Source of the DNA: a virus
Length of the DNA: 64,000 nt
Virus record (IMG/VR): IMGVR_UViG_3300042374_001687
Coordinates: 64,001 to 128,000 of that record
Strand: one strand, 5' to 3'
In this document: positions 36,707-59,257 of the stretch, piece by piece
Layout: each line of letters opens with the position of its first letter
How positions within the stretch are numbered: the first letter of the stretch is position 1
Notes under the pieces: generated by a model
The model's database searches: none
The model's input: the letters and a program-made list of their open reading frames with translations, nothing else
What the model was told of the DNA's origin: nothing
Made by a program: the position numbers and the translations under genes

Positions 36707-37883
36707 ATTCATATGGTTTGTGCGTAACCACGACTTCCTTTTTGCCCAATATGTCAAGAAGATTGATGCCTAGAGCATGGATGTCTTTCTTCAAAAAAAT
36801 ATTGTACTCAATATTAGGATTATTTTTGACATATTCTCTTGCGCAATCGTACTTCATCTGGGTCTCCAGACTATCGTGAAGATAATCCGCTTTGATTTCG
36901 CAAAGAGACAAAACTGAATTGTTTTGATACTTGACCAAGAAGTCAGGAAAATAAAGACCGATATTGCCATTGTCTTTCTTGTAGGGAATACAGAAGGGTT
37001 CATAATCGTACCATTCAACCAATTCTGAATGATCCAAGTGCCAATGGTAAATCAATTCAAATCCAGACCTGAACATGGGATTGGACTTCTTGCACTTTAT
37101 AGAATCGTAATTACCCCGCCAAGTGTTCTTGTGCCCAGCATTCCATTTTCCTTGAAGTATTAGTTCAGTTATGGTTTCCCTCTGCTTCTGGTTCCACTCC
37201 TCCGGCCTGACGATACCCTTTGCCCAAGGGTTCGCCCACGACTCGGCCAGCCACTCCTTGCAGTTCTCACGGAGGTAGTCCTTCATCTCCGGCAATTGGT
37301 TGTAGTGTTCTACTCCGTAGCGCTGGAGGGTGGTCTGAGCCATCTTTACCCTGACCTCGGGGGCTTGGGCGGCGTTCTCGACCCCATAGCGCTCTAAGTT
37401 GGTCTTCCTTGCTTTCTTCTTAATCTCCTCGGCTTGCATGGGATTGTCTACGCCGTATTTATCTTGCACGGTTTGTCGCTGACGCTCCTTGGTCTCGTCA
37501 AGGTGCATGGGGTGTTCCACCCCGTACCTCTCCAAGGATGTCTGCCGGTGCTTCTCCACCCACTGCTTCTTAAAGTCCTCATCCTTGAACTTCGCTTTCC
37601 TTTTTTCCACAAGTTCCTTCTTGTTCATGGGCATTTCCGTGCCGTACTTCTTGAGGCAGGTCTTCTTGGCCTTCTCCTTGATTTCCTTTTTTTTCATGGG
37701 ATTCTTGCTCTTGAGGAAGCACTTGCGACATATGTGCTTTCCCTCGTTATCCCTGAAGTTCTTCTCGGCGTAGCGGAGTTTGAGCATCCGTTCACGCCCG
37801 CATTCATCAAAGCCCCCGTCGCAGTCATACTTGATCTTGACCTCGTGGCCCGGCAGTTTGCCCTCAATTTTTTCTAAATACAT
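36705..37883 (-). CDS. Putative homing endonuclease: 'T.LERYGVE.P' repeats + TnsA/gp4-like PD-(D/E)XK domain
   Basis: Five ~27-aa KYG/RYG repeats. C-terminal 'FRSGFEL...LD....YEPFCIPY...YFPDFLV...EIK'. Confidence 0.7.
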   Translation of the reverse strand: MYLEKIEGKLPGHEVKIKYDCDGGFDECGRERMLKLRYAEKNFRDNEGKHICRKCFLKSKNPMKKKEIKEKAKKTCLKKYGTEMPMNKKELVEKRKAKFKDEDFKKQWVEKHRQTSLERYGVEHPMHLDETKERQRQTVQDKYGVDNPMQAEEIKKKARKTNLERYGVENAAQAPEVRVKMAQTTLQRYGVEHYNQLPEMKDYLRENCKEWLAESWANPWAKGIVRPEEWNQKQRETITELILQGKWNAGHKNTWRGNYDSIKCKKSNPMFRSGFELIYHWHLDHSELVEWYDYEPFCIPYKKDNGNIGLYFPDFLVKYQNNSVLSLCEIKADYLHDSLETQMKYDCAREYVKNNPNIEYNIFLKKDIHALGINLLDILGKKEVVVTHKPYE

Positions 37884-37920
37884 ATTGATTTCTCCGATTG
37901 ATTGACTATTATATATGTAG

Positions 37921-39466
37921 TATGACAGACATAAAAAATCAATATCAAATGGCCAATATAATAGTGCTTGATGAAATCAAGGAACCTACATGGATGAAAA
38001 GGACGCTGGCGGCCGAGAGGGTAGCGAATCCGAATACATTCATCTTTTTCAGGCACGAATGGAACGAGCGTTCGGAGCATATACTTTCACACATCAATTC
38101 CTATTCGCAGGATCGGTTCAAAATACATGCACGAAAGTGCACCGTCAAAAAGATCAGGTCTAAGCAGCATAGGGATTTTTGCGACCTCCACCACATCCAA
38201 GGATCAAACAAACTAACCCTCTCTGCGTTCGGGATATTTTTAGGCGACGATCTTCTGGGCGTTCTGTCGCTCGGAAGGCATAACAGAGACAGCAAGGCGA
38301 CTGTGCTTGATCGTCTGTGTTTTAAGGCGGGGTGGCGGGTTGTGGGTGGAGCCAGCAGACTTTTCTCCGCCGCCAAGAAATGGGCCTTGGAGAACGGCAT
38401 CTATTCCATAGTCAGTTTCAGCGACAACAGAATGAGCCTGGGTACGGTTTACGAAAGGCTAGGTTTTGAGATTGATTGCGAACTGCCTCCCGATTACATC
38501 TACATCAAGGCTGACGACCCCGGCGTCGCCTTCAGCAAACAGAGCCAGCGCAAGAAAGTCACCGGATGTCCTTCCGATGTGACCGAGAAGGAGTGGGCAA
38601 GCAGGCAGGGCCTTGTTCAGGCTTTCGACGCCGGAAAGAAGAGGTGGTTGCTCAAACTCCGATTGCACAAAGAAGTGCCGTTGAAGAGCAGGAGGCAGGG
38701 ATATTACGAGACGAAAAAGGCCAACCCTAGGGTTTTGTACTACCAGTCCAGCTACGAACTGAAAGCGGCAACCATATTGGACGAGATGGACGATGTGAAT
38801 TCTTACATTAGCCAGCACACTTTCACGATGGACGGAAGGGAGAGGGTAACTGATTTCATAGTAACATGGAAGGACGGATCAAAAACCATACTTGAAATCA
38901 AGCCGGAAAGGAGGATTGAACAGTTCAGAGAGCAGATAGGGGACAACAAGGAGTACGCTAGGCGGAACGGGTGGAAGTTCCAAATATGGACGGAGAAAGA
39001 ACTCGGATTCCAAACCGAGTATTTCGCGACCAAGTGGGCCGACGAGTTCATATCAAAGATCACCAAAGTAGACTTCGTTCAAGAGAGAAAGGACAGAAAT
39101 CTCACCAAGTCAAAGAAATACTATGCCGAGAAGATCGCCACCAACAAGGTCTCCGTCTTCTGCGAGTACTGCCAGACGACGCATGAGGCTCTTAGATTGA
39201 CTCACGACAAGAACATAGCCCGCAACGGCCGGTACATTTGTGAACGCGAGGGAGGGCATATAGCGGGCAGCAAGCCCAAGCTCCATCTCAGAAAGGACAA
39301 CCCCCATGCCGCCGATGGGAAGAAGCAGTGCTTGGGTTGCAAGCAAGTTCTATCCTTTGATAATTTCGGCACGGACAAGGTTCGTGCGGACGGGTACGCC
39401 AGCAAGTGCAAGGAGTGCAGGAGGAAGGCGGCGAACGAGAAATATGCCAAGAAGAAGGCTACTTGA
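37921..39466 (+). CDS. Putative mosaic homing endonuclease (Hef-like acetyltransferase-fold domain + TnsA-like nuclease + Zn fingers)
   Basis: 'IHARKC.VK.I...F...HHIQG...GGASRLF', then 'YQSSYE...LD...TDFIV...ILEIKP', then C-terminal CxxC pairs. Confidence 0.65.
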
Positions 39467-39727: not shown

Positions 39728-41974
39728 TCACATTAAACTTCTTATAATTTGAGAACAATAAGATTCATAAGACAACAATTGTTGTGAAATAAACTCAACC
39801 CTGTCGCCCACAGTTTTACCTTGCCCTTCAAATATTGGGTTGTAAAAAATAGGATTATTAAATTGTAAGTTTAAAATTTCTTTGTGGAAAACTCTAAGAT
39901 TTTCAAATATATTGATCCAATTAAACTTAAAATCGTCTTTTATGAATTTATCTATCGAGCTTACAAGTTCCTTTGAATTAAAATTAATACTTCTAAAATC
40001 TCTTCTTATATCAAAGTGATAGGAAGGCTCAAGATTTAAGTGATAATCACCACCACCATCACCAGAATTTAAATTATAAAAACAACCACTATTTTGATAT
40101 CTGTATATTTTTGTCATTGGATTTATCGGACCATAAATTATAAAACTAGGTGTGTTTAGTAGTTGTGCAATATGAGAAGGCCCAGAGTCTATGCCTATAA
40201 AAAGAAATGCATTATTTATAAAAACAAACATATCTTTTATAGATCCAACATCCCTTTGATCGAATAAAATATTTTTGTTTTTATATTCTTCTATTTTTTT
40301 TTCATACTCATTACAATAAAATTTATTTTCTTTTTTGAGTCTTTGTCCAATTAAAACAATTTTATAATCCCCAGAAAGATAATCTATCAGATCTATAAAC
40401 TTATCTTGCTTTGGCATCCTTCCTTCAAAACCTACTCTTTGAGAATCCAGATGTAGCACCACATATTTTTCTTCGATAGGATTAAAGTTAGAATCAAATT
40501 TTTCTATAAATTGCTTGATCAAGTAAGGGTTTGTATCTGTTTCAACAACATTTAGTTTTGCACATATCAAATCAATAGTGTGCATTGGGTATGAATAATT
40601 TAAACTAGTCAAATTGTAAATTGTATCATAATTTGCTTGATCAAAATCATTTACGATTTTTATTTTTGGTAGAAGTTCGTATAGAAAATTAAGTTTATTT
40701 GTGGACAAAGATATGTCAACATTATTTAATTTATGTTGCATTAAGCAACTAGAGACAGGGTATAGTGCATCTACCATATCTCCAAAACCATCTACATTCA
40801 AATTTATCAATATTCTGTTTTTAAATTCTTTTGATTTTAATGATAAATATTTTCGCCATCTACAAAGAAATTTAGATCTATTTAATTCAACAATAGAGTT
40901 TTTAATTGATTCTGGTATTTTATTTGAGCTTTGTGCTCTTTTATGATAAATTTTTATATTTATGTTTTCTTGCTCAAATCCAATTTGTTTTGCCCGTAGA
41001 CAAAAATCTACATCCTCGAAATAAAAATATCTATATAGGTTATCAAAACCGGACAATTGTTTAAAAACACAAGATCTTATGAATAAAACAGAGCCTTCGC
41101 TATAGTCTGGTGTTTGTTTATATTGAGTTTTAATATCGTGTCCACATCCAAATTCATTTACAAATTGAGGCAGATTAGATGAACCTACTATAGCGACATT
41201 TGGTCTTGATTCGAAAATATAAACCGCCTCATTCAGCCAATTAAAATCTTCTATTTCAATGTCATCGTTTAAACACAAAAACAAATCGCTTTCTTGTTGA
41301 TCAAAGTTTTTGTTGTGCCCTTTGCCATAACCTATATTATAGTTGTTGTAAAAACAAACTGATAGATATTTAAGTTCTGATTTAATTTGAAGGCAAGCGT
41401 CTTTTATAATTTCTTGATTACAATCAAAAGAATTATTTCTAATAAATAGTGTTATACTCTCACACCCCATTAGCTCCAATTGCTTGAAAATTCCATAACA
41501 TGTTTTTTTAATGAAATCTACTACAGATTGTTCTGGCTGGTATAGCAAAACGGATACTAACACTTTGGTTTTTGGTGACATTTTATACAGCTTGTTTTGA
41601 ACGTAGTGCTCTGTTGGTAAATCGAGCATGGATTTTTTGTATATCCTTTTTTCTTTTGAACCGTGTAGTAGAAAATGTTGTGCTGCTTTTTCTTTTGAGT
41701 CTAAGTGTTTTAACTCCTTGTATCTTTCAACATATGAGATCCAATCAAAATCTTTTGGTATCAAATTCTCTAGCTGGCTTTTATTTTTAAAATTATTGGG
41801 TGCATAAGTTTTATAATGATAAAATAACCTGTGTTTGTCGTCATAGTTATTCTCCGTGCAATAAGGCTGATAAAAATTTTTGGTTTCGGGATTTTGAGTT
41901 TGATAAAACGCTTCATCGAAATCTTCATCAATAGAATTGACTTCATAAAATTCTTTTATGTTTAAAATTTTCAT
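39728..41974 (-). CDS. Bifunctional glycosyltransferase (GT2 + GT9/heptosyltransferase-like)
   Basis: GT2 motifs 'NIGYGKGHN', 'LNDD' and 'YFEDVDFCLRA'. GT9 motifs 'GFGDMV' and 'FIGIDSGPSHIA'. Two 'DFD..Y...' modules at the N-terminus. Confidence 0.85.
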   Translation of the reverse strand: MKILNIKEFYEVNSIDEDFDEAFYQTQNPETKNFYQPYCTENNYDDKHRLFYHYKTYAPNNFKNKSQLENLIPKDFDWISYVERYKELKHLDSKEKAAQHFLLHGSKEKRIYKKSMLDLPTEHYVQNKLYKMSPKTKVLVSVLLYQPEQSVVDFIKKTCYGIFKQLELMGCESITLFIRNNSFDCNQEIIKDACLQIKSELKYLSVCFYNNYNIGYGKGHNKNFDQQESDLFLCLNDDIEIEDFNWLNEAVYIFESRPNVAIVGSSNLPQFVNEFGCGHDIKTQYKQTPDYSEGSVLFIRSCVFKQLSGFDNLYRYFYFEDVDFCLRAKQIGFEQENINIKIYHKRAQSSNKIPESIKNSIVELNRSKFLCRWRKYLSLKSKEFKNRILINLNVDGFGDMVDALYPVSSCLMQHKLNNVDISLSTNKLNFLYELLPKIKIVNDFDQANYDTIYNLTSLNYSYPMHTIDLICAKLNVVETDTNPYLIKQFIEKFDSNFNPIEEKYVVLHLDSQRVGFEGRMPKQDKFIDLIDYLSGDYKIVLIGQRLKKENKFYCNEYEKKIEEYKNKNILFDQRDVGSIKDMFVFINNAFLFIGIDSGPSHIAQLLNTPSFIIYGPINPMTKIYRYQNSGCFYNLNSGDGGGDYHLNLEPSYHFDIRRDFRSINFNSKELVSSIDKFIKDDFKFNWINIFENLRVFHKEILNLQFNNPIFYNPIFEGQGKTVGDRVEFISQQLLSYESYCSQIIRSLM

Positions 41975-42675
41975 AAGTAAAAATTCTCTATAAGATCTAA
42001 TTCTAATTTAAGTTTTTTTTCCAGATAGTTTTTTAAATTTTCGTTAATTTTTAAATCTTCTTTTTTGTTTTTGATATTGTTATATACATTTTTTAATTTT
42101 AGCGAAAAGGGATTAATTTGGTTAAATCTATCAATACAAGTCTGCATTTTTTCTTGGATAAAAATAAAGTTATATTTTTTAATTTCTTCTTTTGCTATTT
42201 CAAATTTTTCTTCTAAGCTTTTATCCTCATAGCCACAAAGCATATTCATTGTTTCGTGCCCAAATTTTGATATAAAACTATTTAATTCGTCTATTTTTAA
42301 ATCTTTTGGATGCTTTTTTTCAAAAAACAAACAGTGACTTATAAATCTGCTTATAGGATTTCTTATGGTAAAAATTCTATAGGTCTCCTCTTGTTTTAAA
42401 TTAAATTGATCTTCTATAAAGTTCGCGTAACTATGATCTATAAAAGCCTTTGTTCCTTTGTGTATTGCTTTTATGCAACACATATCTCTATGAAGACTTA
42501 TATTCCCATGTGTTAGCATAGAAATATAAGTCGGATTGTTTGAAAAATATTCGTTTTCTTTAAAAGCATCATGAAATGAATGCCTTAGGCTGCTCCCTGC
42601 ACATTTTGCCACATGATTTAATACTAAGTATCTAAACACTAGTAAATCCTTGTATATCCAAAACCTTGTTTCCAT
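41971..42675 (-). CDS. Sulfotransferase family 2-like protein
   Basis: 'HVAKCAGSSL' and 'FTIRNPISRFISH'. Confidence 0.75.
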   Translation of the reverse strand: METRFWIYKDLLVFRYLVLNHVAKCAGSSLRHSFHDAFKENEYFSNNPTYISMLTHGNISLHRDMCCIKAIHKGTKAFIDHSYANFIEDQFNLKQEETYRIFTIRNPISRFISHCLFFEKKHPKDLKIDELNSFISKFGHETMNMLCGYEDKSLEEKFEIAKEEIKKYNFIFIQEKMQTCIDRFNQINPFSLKLKNVYNNIKNKKEDLKINENLKNYLEKKLKLELDLIENFYL

Positions 42676-43982
42676 TATTCTCCATAAGATTTCTCCTCCA
42701 CTATTTGCGACTTGTAATGTAAATTTACATCTTTCTTTATTTTTGCTCTTATATCATTAAATTGATATACCTGTCTTGCGGTTTGTGTAAACTCATCATC
42801 AAATCGACCAGTAGATTCTATGTGTCTTATCTTATCTTCTACTTCCCAAAGTTTTTTGTTTATGTTTATCAATTTATCGAAAAATAATAAATAATTTTTA
42901 TCATAATTGATTTTTTTTGACTCTAATACAAGTTCTAAAGATTTAAGTTCTTTGCAAATGTTTTTGCTTTTTTTTTCATCGTTTATTTTTATTTTTTTAA
43001 TTGTTAATATCGTTACTTTATCAATCAAATCGCCAACAGATGTCGGGACAAATAATTTAGATTCTTCGTTTTTTTCTCCAAGAACATAAATTCTTTTGTT
43101 AAATTCCCTTATCATATTTCCAAACAATCTCTCAAAAGCGTGGGCAATTGTACCATCTGATTTGTGTCTTTTTTCAAAAATATCAACATTTAAATTTGTT
43201 AAAAAATAATTGATAATGTCATATCTAACAACAAACATGGTGCCATAAATAAAGTCTATAGTATTATCTTCAATCTTTAGAAGCTTTCTAATTTTATTAA
43301 AATTTTTTTCATTGATAAAATCTTGCTCATGAGTTAACGACAACCTTGTGTTTGGAGAGCCGATCATTCCAATCGATTCTTCAACCTCAAGAAGCAATAC
43401 TATAGAGCTTAAGTTTTTACAAAGATTTTTATAAACACTATTTCTAAAACAGTGTGTCCAAAATTCATTGGTTTGCGAAGACTTTTTAGTATGAAGTTTT
43501 AGGATATATTTATATTTTTTCCCAGTAGAGTTAATGTGTTGAATAGTTTTTACAAACGGAGCAATATCAGCTCCTGAATTTTTTAATAAAATTATATTCG
43601 ACTCTGGAATTTGTTCTTTAATTGTTTTTTCGTACTCTTTATTGTTTATTGTAATGTAGATATCTCTTGGAACATCTAAGTTTTTAATTAACGGTTTTAT
43701 TTCTTGCTCCCACACTTCAAAATAATGCACATGAACTATTATGCATATTTTATCCTTTATTGGACAGAAATCATAATCATAATAATTTAATAACTCTTTT
43801 CTATTTTTAAACCGCCCTATTCCTTCGTTTTTATAAAGACTATAATGATAAAACAACCTTCTTCTATCATCTATGTTGTTTTCTTGACAATAAGGCTGAT
43901 AAAAACAAATAGTCTCTGGGTATAGGGAGGAGTAGAAGTTTTCATCAAAATCAATGTCTATTGATATTTCTTTGATATCCAT
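42675..43982 (-). CDS. RgpF (rhamnan synthesis F)-like glycosyltransferase fused to a DUF6165-like domain
   Basis: 'IIVHVHY', 'NSGADIAPF', 'LKLHTKKS', 'GTMFVVR' and 'AHAFERLFG'. C-terminal 'SVGDLIDKVTIL.IK...LWEVED.IR...ND.RA.IK..N...IVEEKSY'. Confidence 0.8.
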   Translation of the reverse strand: MDIKEISIDIDFDENFYSSLYPETICFYQPYCQENNIDDRRRLFYHYSLYKNEGIGRFKNRKELLNYYDYDFCPIKDKICIIVHVHYFEVWEQEIKPLIKNLDVPRDIYITINNKEYEKTIKEQIPESNIILLKNSGADIAPFVKTIQHINSTGKKYKYILKLHTKKSSQTNEFWTHCFRNSVYKNLCKNLSSIVLLLEVEESIGMIGSPNTRLSLTHEQDFINEKNFNKIRKLLKIEDNTIDFIYGTMFVVRYDIINYFLTNLNVDIFEKRHKSDGTIAHAFERLFGNMIREFNKRIYVLGEKNEESKLFVPTSVGDLIDKVTILTIKKIKINDEKKSKNICKELKSLELVLESKKINYDKNYLLFFDKLININKKLWEVEDKIRHIESTGRFDDEFTQTARQVYQFNDIRAKIKKDVNLHYKSQIVEEKSYGE

Positions 43983-44142
43983 ATTTTTATTTTACTTTAG
44001 ATCTGGGTCATCACCAAGTCATAAAAATATTGACTCTCCCATTTGCGAAGGTGATAGTAAAAGGATTTAAATACGGCGGAAGGACGGTGAAAGCCGTGGT
44101 CAGCATAGATGCTTTTAAAAGAGATAGAGGCATAGATAAGGC

Positions 44143-57052: not shown

Positions 57053-57186
57053 AAAAGAAGAAGAAAAAGAGCAAAAGTGGCGGACTGAAGATGGTGCTGA
57101 ACTCCAGCGGACAGCCGGTGTTTATCGGTTTCAAGGACTGGCTGGTCGCTCGGGGCAAGCTTGTTGAAGGCCAAGTCCAGACTTAA
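57049..57186 (+). CDS. Small basic protein (45 aa, not in ORF track)
   Basis: MKKKKKKSKSGGLKMVLNSSGQPVFIGFKDWLVARGKLVE...; ATGA-coupled, with an internal FKDWL motif. Confidence 0.4.
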   Translation: MKKKKKKSKSGGLKMVLNSSGQPVFIGFKDWLVARGKLVEGQVQT

Positions 57187-57985
57187 TTTTTGCTGCCGTG
57201 CTTTCGTTTTCAAAAAGAAGGGCGTCTTCGGACTCTACCTCGCTCCTCCAGTTTTCGTTCATTTCTTTGTACTTCTCGGAAAGTTCCTCTGGGGCCGGCA
57301 TCTTTAGTCCGGATATCTCGACAAGCAAAGACCCCAATTCCCCGTGACCCTTGATTTCGTAAATATCGCCCACGCTTGTTCCGGGCTTTATGTGAAGTTT
57401 CCTAGGGCCGTAGAGTGTTTCCACCTCTATTATGCCGCCTTGAAGAGCTACAATTACCGGTATGGCTTCGTTGACAAGAAGCAGTCCGGCATCCTTGTTG
57501 GGCGAAGGCTTGTAACGCTCATGTTCCTTTATGGAATAGTGAACCTTTATGTCCTTTATGGATCCGCCTATCCTCTGTGCTTTGTGCAACTTAGAAACTG
57601 GTGACGCTTTTAAAAGCAACATTGGGGGTATCTTCTCCACCACCGTCAGGACATGAATGTTTGCCTTGGATGAAATATTCCTTTTGTCTGATATCATGGG
57701 AACGCTGGATATAACCTCTTGCCTCAGGTGTGTCTCCAAGGTCGTTCCGAATATTGCCTCCTCAAGAGATACTTGAACATGAAACTCAATCTTGTCTTCT
57801 TTTGGGGTTTCGTCTTCTTGCAAGGATGTAAGAAGTTTGTATGCCTCGTGTATCTTCAAGAATTTCTCAGGATCGCCGCCCTTGTCGGGGTGGTTCTCCT
57901 TGCTCATCTTCAGATATGCCTTTTTTATAGTCTCCTTGGGGTCGGAACTTATTCCTAGGATTTCATACGCTTCTTCAATAGTCAT
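57131..57985 (-). CDS. DnaJ-like (class II/CbpA-type) co-chaperone
   Basis: J-domain 'YEILG...IKKAY......HPDKGGD..KF..I.EAY..L' and a C-terminal DnaJ_C-like domain; no Zn finger. Confidence 0.85.
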   Translation of the reverse strand: MTIEEAYEILGISSDPKETIKKAYLKMSKENHPDKGGDPEKFLKIHEAYKLLTSLQEDETPKEDKIEFHVQVSLEEAIFGTTLETHLRQEVISSVPMISDKRNISSKANIHVLTVVEKIPPMLLLKASPVSKLHKAQRIGGSIKDIKVHYSIKEHERYKPSPNKDAGLLLVNEAIPVIVALQGGIIEVETLYGPRKLHIKPGTSVGDIYEIKGHGELGSLLVEISGLKMPAPEELSEKYKEMNENWRSEVESEDALLFENESTAAKIKSGLGLQQACPERPASP

Positions 57986-58004
57986 ATCTTATATATGATT
58001 GCAT

Positions 58005-58044
58005 AAAAAAAGCCGGCCAGGTCATTTCTGACTCTGGCCGGCTT
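58005..58044 (-). terminator. Intrinsic terminator ending the putative large ncRNA
   Basis: Minus strand: aagccggccagagtca-gaaa-tgacctggccggc followed by TTTTTTT. Confidence 0.85.
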
Positions 58045-58877
58045 GATTTGGCGAAAGGATTTTGATCCACTCGTGGTTTAACAGAGGAATGAATCAATCA
58101 TTGAAGTCCGTCACTTAAAGCAGATCCCACAGGTTCCTTCCGCCTTTGGGCATTTTTAACCCACCGCGTTTGACCTGTGTGTGACAGTCGTGGTCTGTCC
58201 GTAAACTTGCTGACGGCCATGGATTTAGCCTTTCGCGCCAGATTCCGCCTGTAACCAGCGGTTGCCCTAGCGTGGAGGCGTATGTCCAACATGCTGACGA
58301 CTCGTTCCGTGCATTTGCCGCGACATTCCTGTTTTTTAACGTGTTCAGGCACCACGTCGTTTCTGGGGATTTTTTATCCCGGGCTCAACATCACTATGTT
58401 CCGTCGCCACGGATGCTCTGTGTTCACAGAGGGATTTCCATGAGAGACTGCTGGTTCAAATGGCTATCCCGTGATGCTCAAGGACCGTTACTCCGTTTTA
58501 TTTTGGGCTTGCCCACAAGGAGCAAGTGCGTTCCCGAACTGTGCGGAGGCGTTTTGAAAACATTTGGGCGAGTCTTCATTTCTGTCGGCTCGTCCTATCT
58601 GCCTTCTCATCCTTTCTACGAAGCCCGCCTTAGAGTTCCGAGTCCGACTCCTCCTTTTACGGTTTTGTCGGATCGTATGTGGTTCAGATGCACCTTTCGG
58701 AGCAGGAGCCACATCCCGGCCCATTCTGCGGGTTGGGCTTTTGTCAACGTGGAGATCTTTTGGACTCCATCGTATGACCCTAAGGCTTCATTTTTCACCG
58801 ATACCTTTTCGGTATCGGCAAGGACTTGGCTTAATTGTCAATGATCAGCTCAGCCATCGCGTTTCCGTGCGGCTGAT
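58005..58877 (-). ncRNA. Putative large structured non-coding RNA (~870 nt)
   Basis: No credible ORF. Bounded by a sigma70 promoter and a terminator, with many stems, purine-rich loops and long-range pairings. Confidence 0.65.
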
Positions 58878-58883
58878 GGGCTC

Positions 58884-58911
58884 AGTATACAAAGATCGGC
58901 ACGCGTTGCAA
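58884..58911 (-). promoter_or_regulatory. Sigma70-type promoter TTGCAA-N16-TATACT
   Basis: Minus-strand sequence ttgcaa cgcgtgccgatctttg tatact. Confidence 0.65.
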
Positions 58912-58966
58912 GGGCCGGACGAAATTTTTTTTCGGATTGGTCGCAAACCCTTTTGGCAAAAGAAGA

Positions 58967-59257
58967 TCAGTCCTTATAGGGTATCCAGTGCTTCCGGGTA
59001 AATAGGAGGTTTGCGAAAAATCCACAAAATGCGCTCATGATATTGCTCGCATACGGAAGGGTGACATCCTGCATCGGGTTGATGAGGAAGCTCAGTCCCA
59101 AACTGATCCAGAAACTCGAGCATTCGTGGCAGAGGAGCATCCTTCTGATGTAGGGCACTCTTGCCACAAGGTTTCTAAACGGAACACTGGCCTCGGTGTC
59201 GCTCCACGCGTAGCACACCCCGAGGCTCGTGATGAGAAATAAAACGAGAGTGTTCAT
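58967..59257 (-). CDS. Small membrane protein (DUF1360-like)
   Basis: Three TM segments with 'LLCHECSSFWI'. Confidence 0.6.
   Translation of the reverse strand: MNTLVLFLITSLGVCYAWSDTEASVPFRNLVARVPYIRRMLLCHECSSFWISLGLSFLINPMQDVTLPYASNIMSAFCGFFANLLFTRKHWIPYKD

Follow-up and report, generated by a model that had tools for sequence, protein, structure and literature searches.

Introduction

To our knowledge, very few classes of large (>500 nt), intricately folded noncoding RNA (ncRNA) are known in bacteria and phages, and the RNA genes of huge phages are almost unexplored. The large RNA classes described earlier have repaid study, as for ribosomal RNA (rRNA), RNase P, the introns, OLE, and the RNA-only cages of ROOL and GOLLD. 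GOLLD was first seen partly in lake metagenomes and, as reportedly noted by Weinberg et al. in 2009, often adjoins or includes tRNA genes. ROOL and GOLLD both form RNA-only multimers (bioRxiv 10.1101/2024.12.08.627333). Here, we describe a stand-alone RNA gene at positions 58911-58003, on the minus strand, of a 64,000-nt stretch of phage DNA (the window), which comprises bases 64001-128000 of the 143.6-kb IMG/VR virus record IMGVR_UViG_3300042374_001687. The RNA is ~873 nt in length, and very probably it represents an undescribed family of large multi-domain structured RNAs that are accessory in uncultivated huge tailed phages. Positions given below are those of the window unless stated otherwise.

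Results

Comparison with known RNA families

A model that had seen only the letters of the window and a list of its open reading frames (ORFs) had proposed that this interval encodes a highly structured RNA, either GOLLD-like or a new large phage RNA; we refer to this proposal as the sequence-only reading. It was found that Rfam 15 gave no match in the 64-kb window at gathering thresholds, only noise in the interval 57900-59050 at E ≤ 10, and no match to four homologues (L093, L105, L110, and L111, described below) at E ≤ 1. Specifically, the covariance models of GOLLD (RF01998) and ROOL (RF03087) matched neither the window RNA nor the four homologues, the group I and group II intron models (RF00028, RF00029, and related models) gave no match at E ≤ 10, and there was no Rfam 15 match to RNase P. 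Of the two options in the sequence-only reading, the new RNA therefore stands and GOLLD does not.

The RNA resembles GOLLD and ROOL, which are ~600-800 nt in length, in being a large, many-helix, GNRA-rich, accessory ncRNA of phages or prophages. It differs from GOLLD in that ARAGORN found no tRNA in the window or in eight homologue loci, and from both families in being carried by an uncultivated clade of huge phages. We also know of no report of an rRNA-type hairpin-plus-boxA leader for GOLLD or ROOL. Unlike group I and group II introns, the unit is intergenic and has its own promoter and terminator.

The layout of the gene is like that of an rRNA operon leader (boxB-boxA-boxC), with an upstream A/T tract, a promoter, a hairpin, an unpaired boxA, and a long untranslated structured transcript, although no rRNA model matches and a boxC was not found. 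The length of 873-916 nt among homologues, the lack of a coding signal, the covarying helices, and the invariant nucleotides are those of a large ornate ncRNA of bacteria and phages. The RNA is a new family within the loose kind of large ornate phage-borne RNAs, with a putative rRNA-type leader.

Homologues of the RNA in five lineages

Homologous RNAs were found in five diverged lineages, which we designate A (the window copy), B (L093 and L105), C (L110), D (L111), and E (L198, L199, and L205). Full-length copies were obtained in all four further lineages. Identity to the window copy was 61-74% among the homologues, and lineages B to E share 61-73% with it along 873-916 nt, with some copies located at the same site as in the window and others in unrelated gene contexts, of which there are at least three.

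These copies were obtained by several routes. A 99-amino acid (aa) stop-free minus-strand frame over the 5′ domain found, in metagenome contigs, the 1,033-nt contig L092, which aligns to window positions 59084-58081 at 73% identity. Relatives of the neighbouring 95-aa protein led to eight ENA scaffolds that contain the RNA (L093 to L100) and to the variant L105, and a pattern made from one block that these copies share unchanged found L110 and L111 in IMG/VR. L198 and L199 were detected with a covariance model of the central domain (R2) among the 81 IMG/VR records in which the 95-aa protein is encoded, and L205 was detected by a final pattern scan.

Other searches gave no homologue. These were blastn of the RNA against 50,697 phage records; the 190-aa plus-strand frame used as a pseudo-protein against a protein database, viral contigs, and metagenome contigs; the 145-aa frame used in the same way against viral contigs and genome contigs; and the single-sequence covariance model R1 against 1.5 Mb of J-domain-bearing viral loci. 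Exact 17- and 18-mers of the most conserved block gave only chance matches in viral contigs (L091) and bacterial genomes (L112 to L115), and a J-domain alignment search was dropped when it returned unrelated viruses. A second copy of the RNA was not found in the 143.6-kb record.

Five candidates were rejected. L200 and L201 were weak R2 matches (23 bits) that lacked the invariant hairpins, and L204, in phage LR756511.1, scored 19 bits and looks protein-coding; all three were rejected because they were also invisible to nhmmer. L206 and L208 were chance pattern matches.

Covariation and folding of the RNA

In single-sequence folding, the z-scores of the whole unit were -8.1 for the minus strand and -6.3 for the plus strand (20 shuffles), with most of the signal coming from the terminator and the first 270 nt. 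The 5′ 270 nt gave a z-score of -5.6 (200 shuffles), compared to -0.36 ± 1.41, with a minimum of -4.8, for 41 windows of the same length that were taken as controls from this genome. The z-score of the 3′ 565 nt was only -2.3, and so the structure of the 3′ part is drawn from covariation among homologues, which single-sequence folding does not show.

The minimum-energy fold of the window copy was placed on L093, and it was found that 20 pairs were changed on both sides, relative to a mean of 6.7 and a maximum of 13 in 60 column shuffles. The reciprocal test with the same two sequences gave 19 such pairs as opposed to 5.9. In a five-sequence RNAalifold analysis there were 79 compensatory pairs, whereas shuffled alignments had 31.5 ± 5. 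The seven-sequence alignment (A7) gave an RNAalifold consensus of 223 pairs in ~33 helices, with 94.5% of cells canonical, and it contained 96 compensatory pairs versus 26.4 ± 5.3 (maximum 39) in 73 column shuffles. The consensus energy was -218.9 kcal/mol, compared to -47.1 ± 5.6 kcal/mol for the shuffled alignments and -148.6 kcal/mol for the opposite strand. The reverse complement folds worse, and therefore the G-U pairs favour the minus strand of the window, in agreement with the promoter and the terminator. The compensatory changes are spread along the whole RNA, including the 3′ part.

These results show that compensatory change has kept a predicted fold of ~220 base pairs (bp) in ~33 helices, in which long-range helices close five domains and there are two helices of the pseudoknot type. 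The structured RNA of the sequence-only reading is thus strongly supported by the covariation among its homologues.

Coding potential

The ORFs in the region of the RNA had codon scores of -0.32 to +0.08 per codon, in comparison to 0.28 ± 0.11 for long genes, and frames of the region gave no match to Pfam or PHROGs. Alternative genetic codes and reassigned stop codons opened no credible frame. Mismatches among homologues were distributed evenly over the three codon phases (p 0.42-0.97), only 7 of 89 insertions and deletions (indels) had a length that is a multiple of three, and the longest open frame in L110, L198, and L199 was at most 86 codons, with no frame conserved. There are plus-strand open frames of 190 and 145 codons, which are explained by the base composition, because the RNA strand contains only 18% U (and so the plus strand 18% A). 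Therefore, no coding signature was found in any frame, the ORFs called in this region are spurious, as the sequence-only reading had held, and the RNA does not code for protein.

Promoter, leader, and terminator

The features of the RNA gene are listed in Table 1. Each of the elements named in the sequence-only reading (the promoter TTGCAA-N16-TATACT, the 5′ hairpin, the boxA-like sequence, the hairpin GCCGAUACC/GGUAUCGGU, and the strong terminator) was located, and the promoter, 5′ hairpin, boxA, and terminator were present in all five lineages. Within the promoter, the columns C-T-T-G of the -35 region and T-A-n-A-n-T of the -10 region were invariant in seven sequences from three genomic contexts, and the spacing was constant in all five lineages. 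The A/T-rich tract upstream of the -35 hexamer resembles an UP element in its composition and position, and it may have the corresponding function.

In the 5′ hairpin, a compensatory change separates the outer stem of the window copy (CAGCC/GGCUG) from that of the other lineages (CAAC/GUUG), and the loop is GAAA, with GAGA in L111. The boxA element is GAUCAUUGACAAUU in lineages A and B, GAUCUUUGACAAUU in C and D, and GCUCUUUGACAAUU in E, in which the boxA leader reads GCUCUUUGACA; hence its position is invariant and its sequence nearly so. A boxA consensus, GYTCTTTAANA, has been derived for gamma-proteobacteria (PMC5725501). Lineages C and D match this consensus, which may not be that of the host, at 9 of 11 positions and lineage E at 10 of 11. 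At the 3′ end, the lineages differ by compensatory changes in 8 of the 16 stem pairs of the terminator, and its loop and U run do not vary.

Table 1. Features of the RNA gene. Helices other than the two of the pseudoknot type are from the RNAalifold consensus, and support differs between helices.
Feature	Position	Strand	Description
A/T-rich tract, UP element-like	58932-58921	minus	AAAAAAAATTTC in the window; equivalent A/T run before the -35 hexamer in all five lineages (alignment A7)
Sigma-70-type promoter	58911-58884	minus	TTGCAA, 16-nt spacer, TATACT; from a promoter scan
-35 hexamer	58911-58906	minus	TTGCAA
-10 hexamer	58889-58884	minus	TATACT
Predicted transcription start	~58877	minus	A, 7 nt after the -10 hexamer; from promoter geometry alone
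5′ hairpin	58876-58850	minus	GNRA loop; boxB position; outer stem with a compensatory change
boxA element	58846-58833	minus	GAUCAUUGACAAUU; unpaired, conserved in all lineages
Body-closing helix	58826-58822/58109-58105	minus	5 pairs, 2 compensatory, 0 of 35 cells broken
Hairpin	58821-58795	minus	GCCGAUACC/GGUAUCGGU; 11 pairs, 3 compensatory
Domain I	58786-58627	minus	Multi-way junction with four arms, closed by 58786-58778/58635-58627; holds the invariant block UCGGAACUCUAAGGCGGGCUUCG
Domains II and III	58626-58381	minus	Inside helix 58626-58621/58386-58381; invariant GAGCAUCCGUGGCGACGG hairpin and CAUCAC/GUGAUG stem
Hairpin	58380-58366	minus	Short A-rich loop in the window
H-type pseudoknot	58358-58328	minus	Hairpin 58358-58338, A-rich tail; loop CCUG (58349-58346) with CAGG (58331-58328)
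Domain IV	58324-58187	minus	Closed by 58324-58318/58193-58187; conserved CUGGUAACAGG hairpin
Domain V	58185-58110	minus	Helix 58179-58173/58134-58128, 4 compensatory pairs, 0 broken cells
Long-range tertiary helix	58452-58448 (loop)/58123-58119	minus	AGCAG/CUGCU, canonical in 7 of 7 sequences, 2 covarying pairs
3′ hairpin before terminator	58097-58064	minus	11 pairs, 3 compensatory, 1 of 75 cells broken
Intrinsic terminator	58044-58010, U run to ~58003	minus	16-bp stem, loop AGAAAU, then U run

Domain architecture

The long-range helix, its enclosed sub-stems, and the CAUCAC/GUGAUG stem that had been noted from the single sequence were each recovered by RNAalifold with compensatory changes. 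The closing helix of Domain I has compensatory changes in 6 of 9 pairs and encloses the stems AUGUG/CACAU (58714-58710/58681-58677) and UCCGAC/GUCGGA (58675-58667/58648-58639), and the arms of this domain have 3, 1, 4 + 5, and 5 compensatory pairs. In Domains II and III, the compensatory pairs number 5 of 5 in helix 58605-58601/58560-58556, 7 of 7 in 58593-58587/58574-58568, 5 of 7 in 58525-58519/58515-58509, and 2 of 8 in the CAUCAC/GUGAUG stem (58478-58471/58394-58387). In Domain IV there are three stacked long-range helices, with 2 compensatory pairs each, as is also the number in its hairpin 58261-58245. Insertions in some lineages lengthen hairpins, and in lineage B the GNRA-capped GGCGAAAGCC replaces the short A-rich loop of the hairpin that follows Domains II and III.

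Tertiary contacts were sought as additional helices of otherwise unpaired columns, with canonical pairing in each of the seven sequences. Two covarying pseudoknot-type helices were obtained, namely the second helix of the H-type pseudoknot and the long-range tertiary helix of Table 1. The former, of 4 bp, was canonical in 7 of 7 sequences and covaries at three positions (CCUG/CAGG, CUUG/CAAG, CUUA/UAAG, and CUCA/UGAG). This pseudoknot alone shares the topology of the preQ1-I family (RF00522), in which a short hairpin is followed by an A-rich tail (here UUAAAAAAC) and the hairpin loop pairs with a segment on the 3′ side, and its match to that model was sub-threshold (18.8 bits compared to a gathering threshold of 39, E 0.53). 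Unlike preQ1-I, the pseudoknot is embedded in a 0.9-kb RNA without a downstream gene to control.

Several loops are conserved GNRA or GNRA-like tetraloops, such as GAAA/GCAA at 58698-58695 and GUAA in CUGGUAACAGG, and there are invariant blocks of up to 19-31 nt. A conserved palindromic loop of the kind that suggests kissing-loop dimers was not found in the RNA.

Carrier phage and genomic location

Genes for a portal protein, a large terminase, and proteins of the tail fibre and baseplate are present in the window, and therefore the carrier is a tailed phage. Its genome is probably several hundred kb in size, and the CheckV completeness of the 143.6-kb record was 28%. The best match of the large terminase in a phage collection was from the uncultured 595-kb phage LR756511.1, at 48% identity, with cultured relatives at only ~30%.

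The RNA gene is flanked by a gene for a 96-aa membrane protein (58967-59257, minus strand) and by a DnaJ-like gene (57131-57985, minus strand), the product of which matches Pfam DnaJ and DnaJ_C. The 96-aa protein matched no Pfam or PHROG family; it has invariant CHEC.SFW and FCGFF motifs and ~200 relatives in huge-phage contigs, and its gene is a useful marker of this clade. The start of dnaJ is located 19 nt past the terminator U run (57985-58005) and lacks a Shine-Dalgarno sequence, with only a TATATA-like sequence upstream in the window and its relatives, and so the dnaJ mRNA may have no leader or only a very short one. We also observed a 22-nt inverted repeat (58928-58949/59008-59029, 82% complementary) with one arm at the 3′ end of the 96-aa gene and the other immediately ahead of the RNA promoter. 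The repeat may serve for processing or form a stem that insulates, or it may have arisen by chance (rough p ~0.02-0.05).

Distribution and history of the site

The RNA was present in 4 of 81 related IMG/VR records. In the sister phage L002, the DnaJ protein of which is 82% identical, the 95-aa gene is followed directly by the terminator and dnaJ, which gave a first impression of an insertion in the phage of the window. This impression was overturned when the "empty" sites of L002, L101, and L102 were found to keep ~60 nt homologous to the 3′ end of the RNA, consisting of the terminator and ~20 nt upstream. The retained 3′ end points to loss of the RNA gene by deletion in these three phages, and not to a gain by the phage of the window.

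At the same place, L006 has a 211-aa methyltransferase-like gene, and in L094, L098, and L099 an IS605 TnpB gene is located directly after the RNA. The gap between the 95/96-aa membrane protein gene and dnaJ (57985-58967 in the window, and also in L002, L006, L094, L101, L102, and L106) is thus a swap site with at least five alleles: the last ~60 nt of the RNA only, the 211-aa methyltransferase-like gene, a 625-aa gene on the opposite strand, the RNA, and the RNA with IS605 TnpB.

Elsewhere in the window, a low-GC island at ~40000-44000 (0.27-0.28, versus 0.45-0.55 nearby), with minus-strand ORFs at 39728-43982, looks like foreign DNA. Another ORF-free gap, of 657 nt (positions 37828-38484 of the record), is present in the same record outside of the window; this gap and two of the 270-nt control windows, which folded at z-scores of -4.8 and -4.0, may be further structured elements.

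Discussion

The sporadic distribution of the RNA in its clade, the copies in at least three unrelated gene contexts, the location of the window copy at a swap site with several alleles, and the TnpB gene next to three of the copies would all agree with the RNA being part of a mobile element, such as a group I or group II intron that lacks an ORF, the RNA of a retroelement, or an orphan IS605-type guide RNA, in which the fold would serve its own mobility. We consider this improbable. No Rfam intron or ribozyme model reached E ≤ 10 on the window copy, and the unit, which does not split a gene, is served by a conserved promoter and terminator of its own. Furthermore, a reverse transcriptase, nuclease, or transposase gene is not consistently nearby (most copies lack TnpB), a clean target-site duplication was not seen, there is one copy per genome record, and the 3′ end of the RNA retained at the "empty" sites indicates deletion as opposed to precise excision. 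It is very improbable that the RNA is instead a long structured 3′ untranslated region of the upstream operon, which contains the 134-aa and 96-aa genes, with a cis effect on the stability or termination of that mRNA. In favour of this reading, the RNA follows the stop codon of the 96-aa gene and precedes the operon terminator, no other terminator is located between this gene and the RNA, and the inverted repeat ties the end of the gene to the DNA ahead of the promoter. However, the promoter hexamers have been conserved, sister phages do without the RNA, and lineages C, D, and E have the RNA, together with its promoter, boxA, and terminator, downstream of unrelated genes or between opposite-strand genes. 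Because these three lineages adjoin unrelated genes and yet keep the promoter, 5′ hairpin, boxA, and terminator, the promoter-to-terminator unit is one autonomous module that moves between contexts, and not the tail of an upstream operon.

There is next to no chance that the sequence is decaying or spurious, or is a protein gene that is read in an unusual way, with incidental structure. The two long plus-strand frames, which could be taken to indicate a protein, are explained by the A-poor composition of that strand, and the homologues show no codon periodicity, frame-breaking indels, and no conserved frame, nor did alternative genetic codes help. Although the 3′ two thirds of the single sequence fold only slightly better than shuffles, compensatory changes are present along the whole length. 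As far as sequence analysis goes, this explanation is already refuted.

Several observations count against the interpretation of a stand-alone structured RNA gene with an rRNA-type leader. Taken by itself, the promoter match is at chance level in this genome, with 30 promoter-type sites in the surrounding 20 kb compared to 22 expected, and the boxA-like pattern alone is not enriched above chance in the window; it is only conservation across lineages that gives the promoter and boxA their weight as evidence. The window boxA agrees with the gamma-proteobacterial consensus, from which that of the host may differ, at only 8 of 11 positions. Only five independent lineages were found, and several of the RNAalifold helices contain broken cells. 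The expression of the RNA, its ends, and any processing are predicted from the DNA sequence. Lastly, seven of the related IMG/VR records have a completeness of 90% or more, and none of these contains the RNA, which is therefore dispensable.

On rRNA operons, a complex in which NusB-NusE binds boxA shields the transcript from Rho and aids the co-transcriptional folding of rRNA. By analogy, we suggest that the sigma-70 RNA polymerase of the host would start transcription of the phage RNA gene at ~58877, and that the nascent 5′ hairpin and boxA would recruit the NusB/NusE-based complex of the host. The long untranslated transcript would thereby escape Rho and fold during synthesis, until the intrinsic terminator ends transcription. 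The most economical reading of the conserved leader is that the phage uses the Nus machinery of the host to complete and fold a long untranslated RNA.

What the mature RNA would do is proposed more tentatively. By analogy with the phage-associated ROOL and GOLLD, it may act in trans during infection as a scaffold, either for a ribonucleoprotein or for an assembly of RNA alone; we think of this as a possibility that falls short of an even chance. A catalytic or decoy role is less likely than that of a scaffold. A bolder proposal, which we hold to be doubtful, is that this is a new ~0.9-kb class of phage RNA that borrows the rRNA antitermination and folding machinery of the host and then works, while a huge phage infects its host, as a self-assembling particle of the ROOL/GOLLD type or as a ribozyme.

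Taken together, these results provide a well-supported new class of large RNA from huge phages, for which chemical probing and cryo-EM can start at once from the available alignment, covariance model, and domain map. Furthermore, the conserved rRNA-type boxA leader is a directly testable handle on the possible recruitment of the host Nus complex by a phage.

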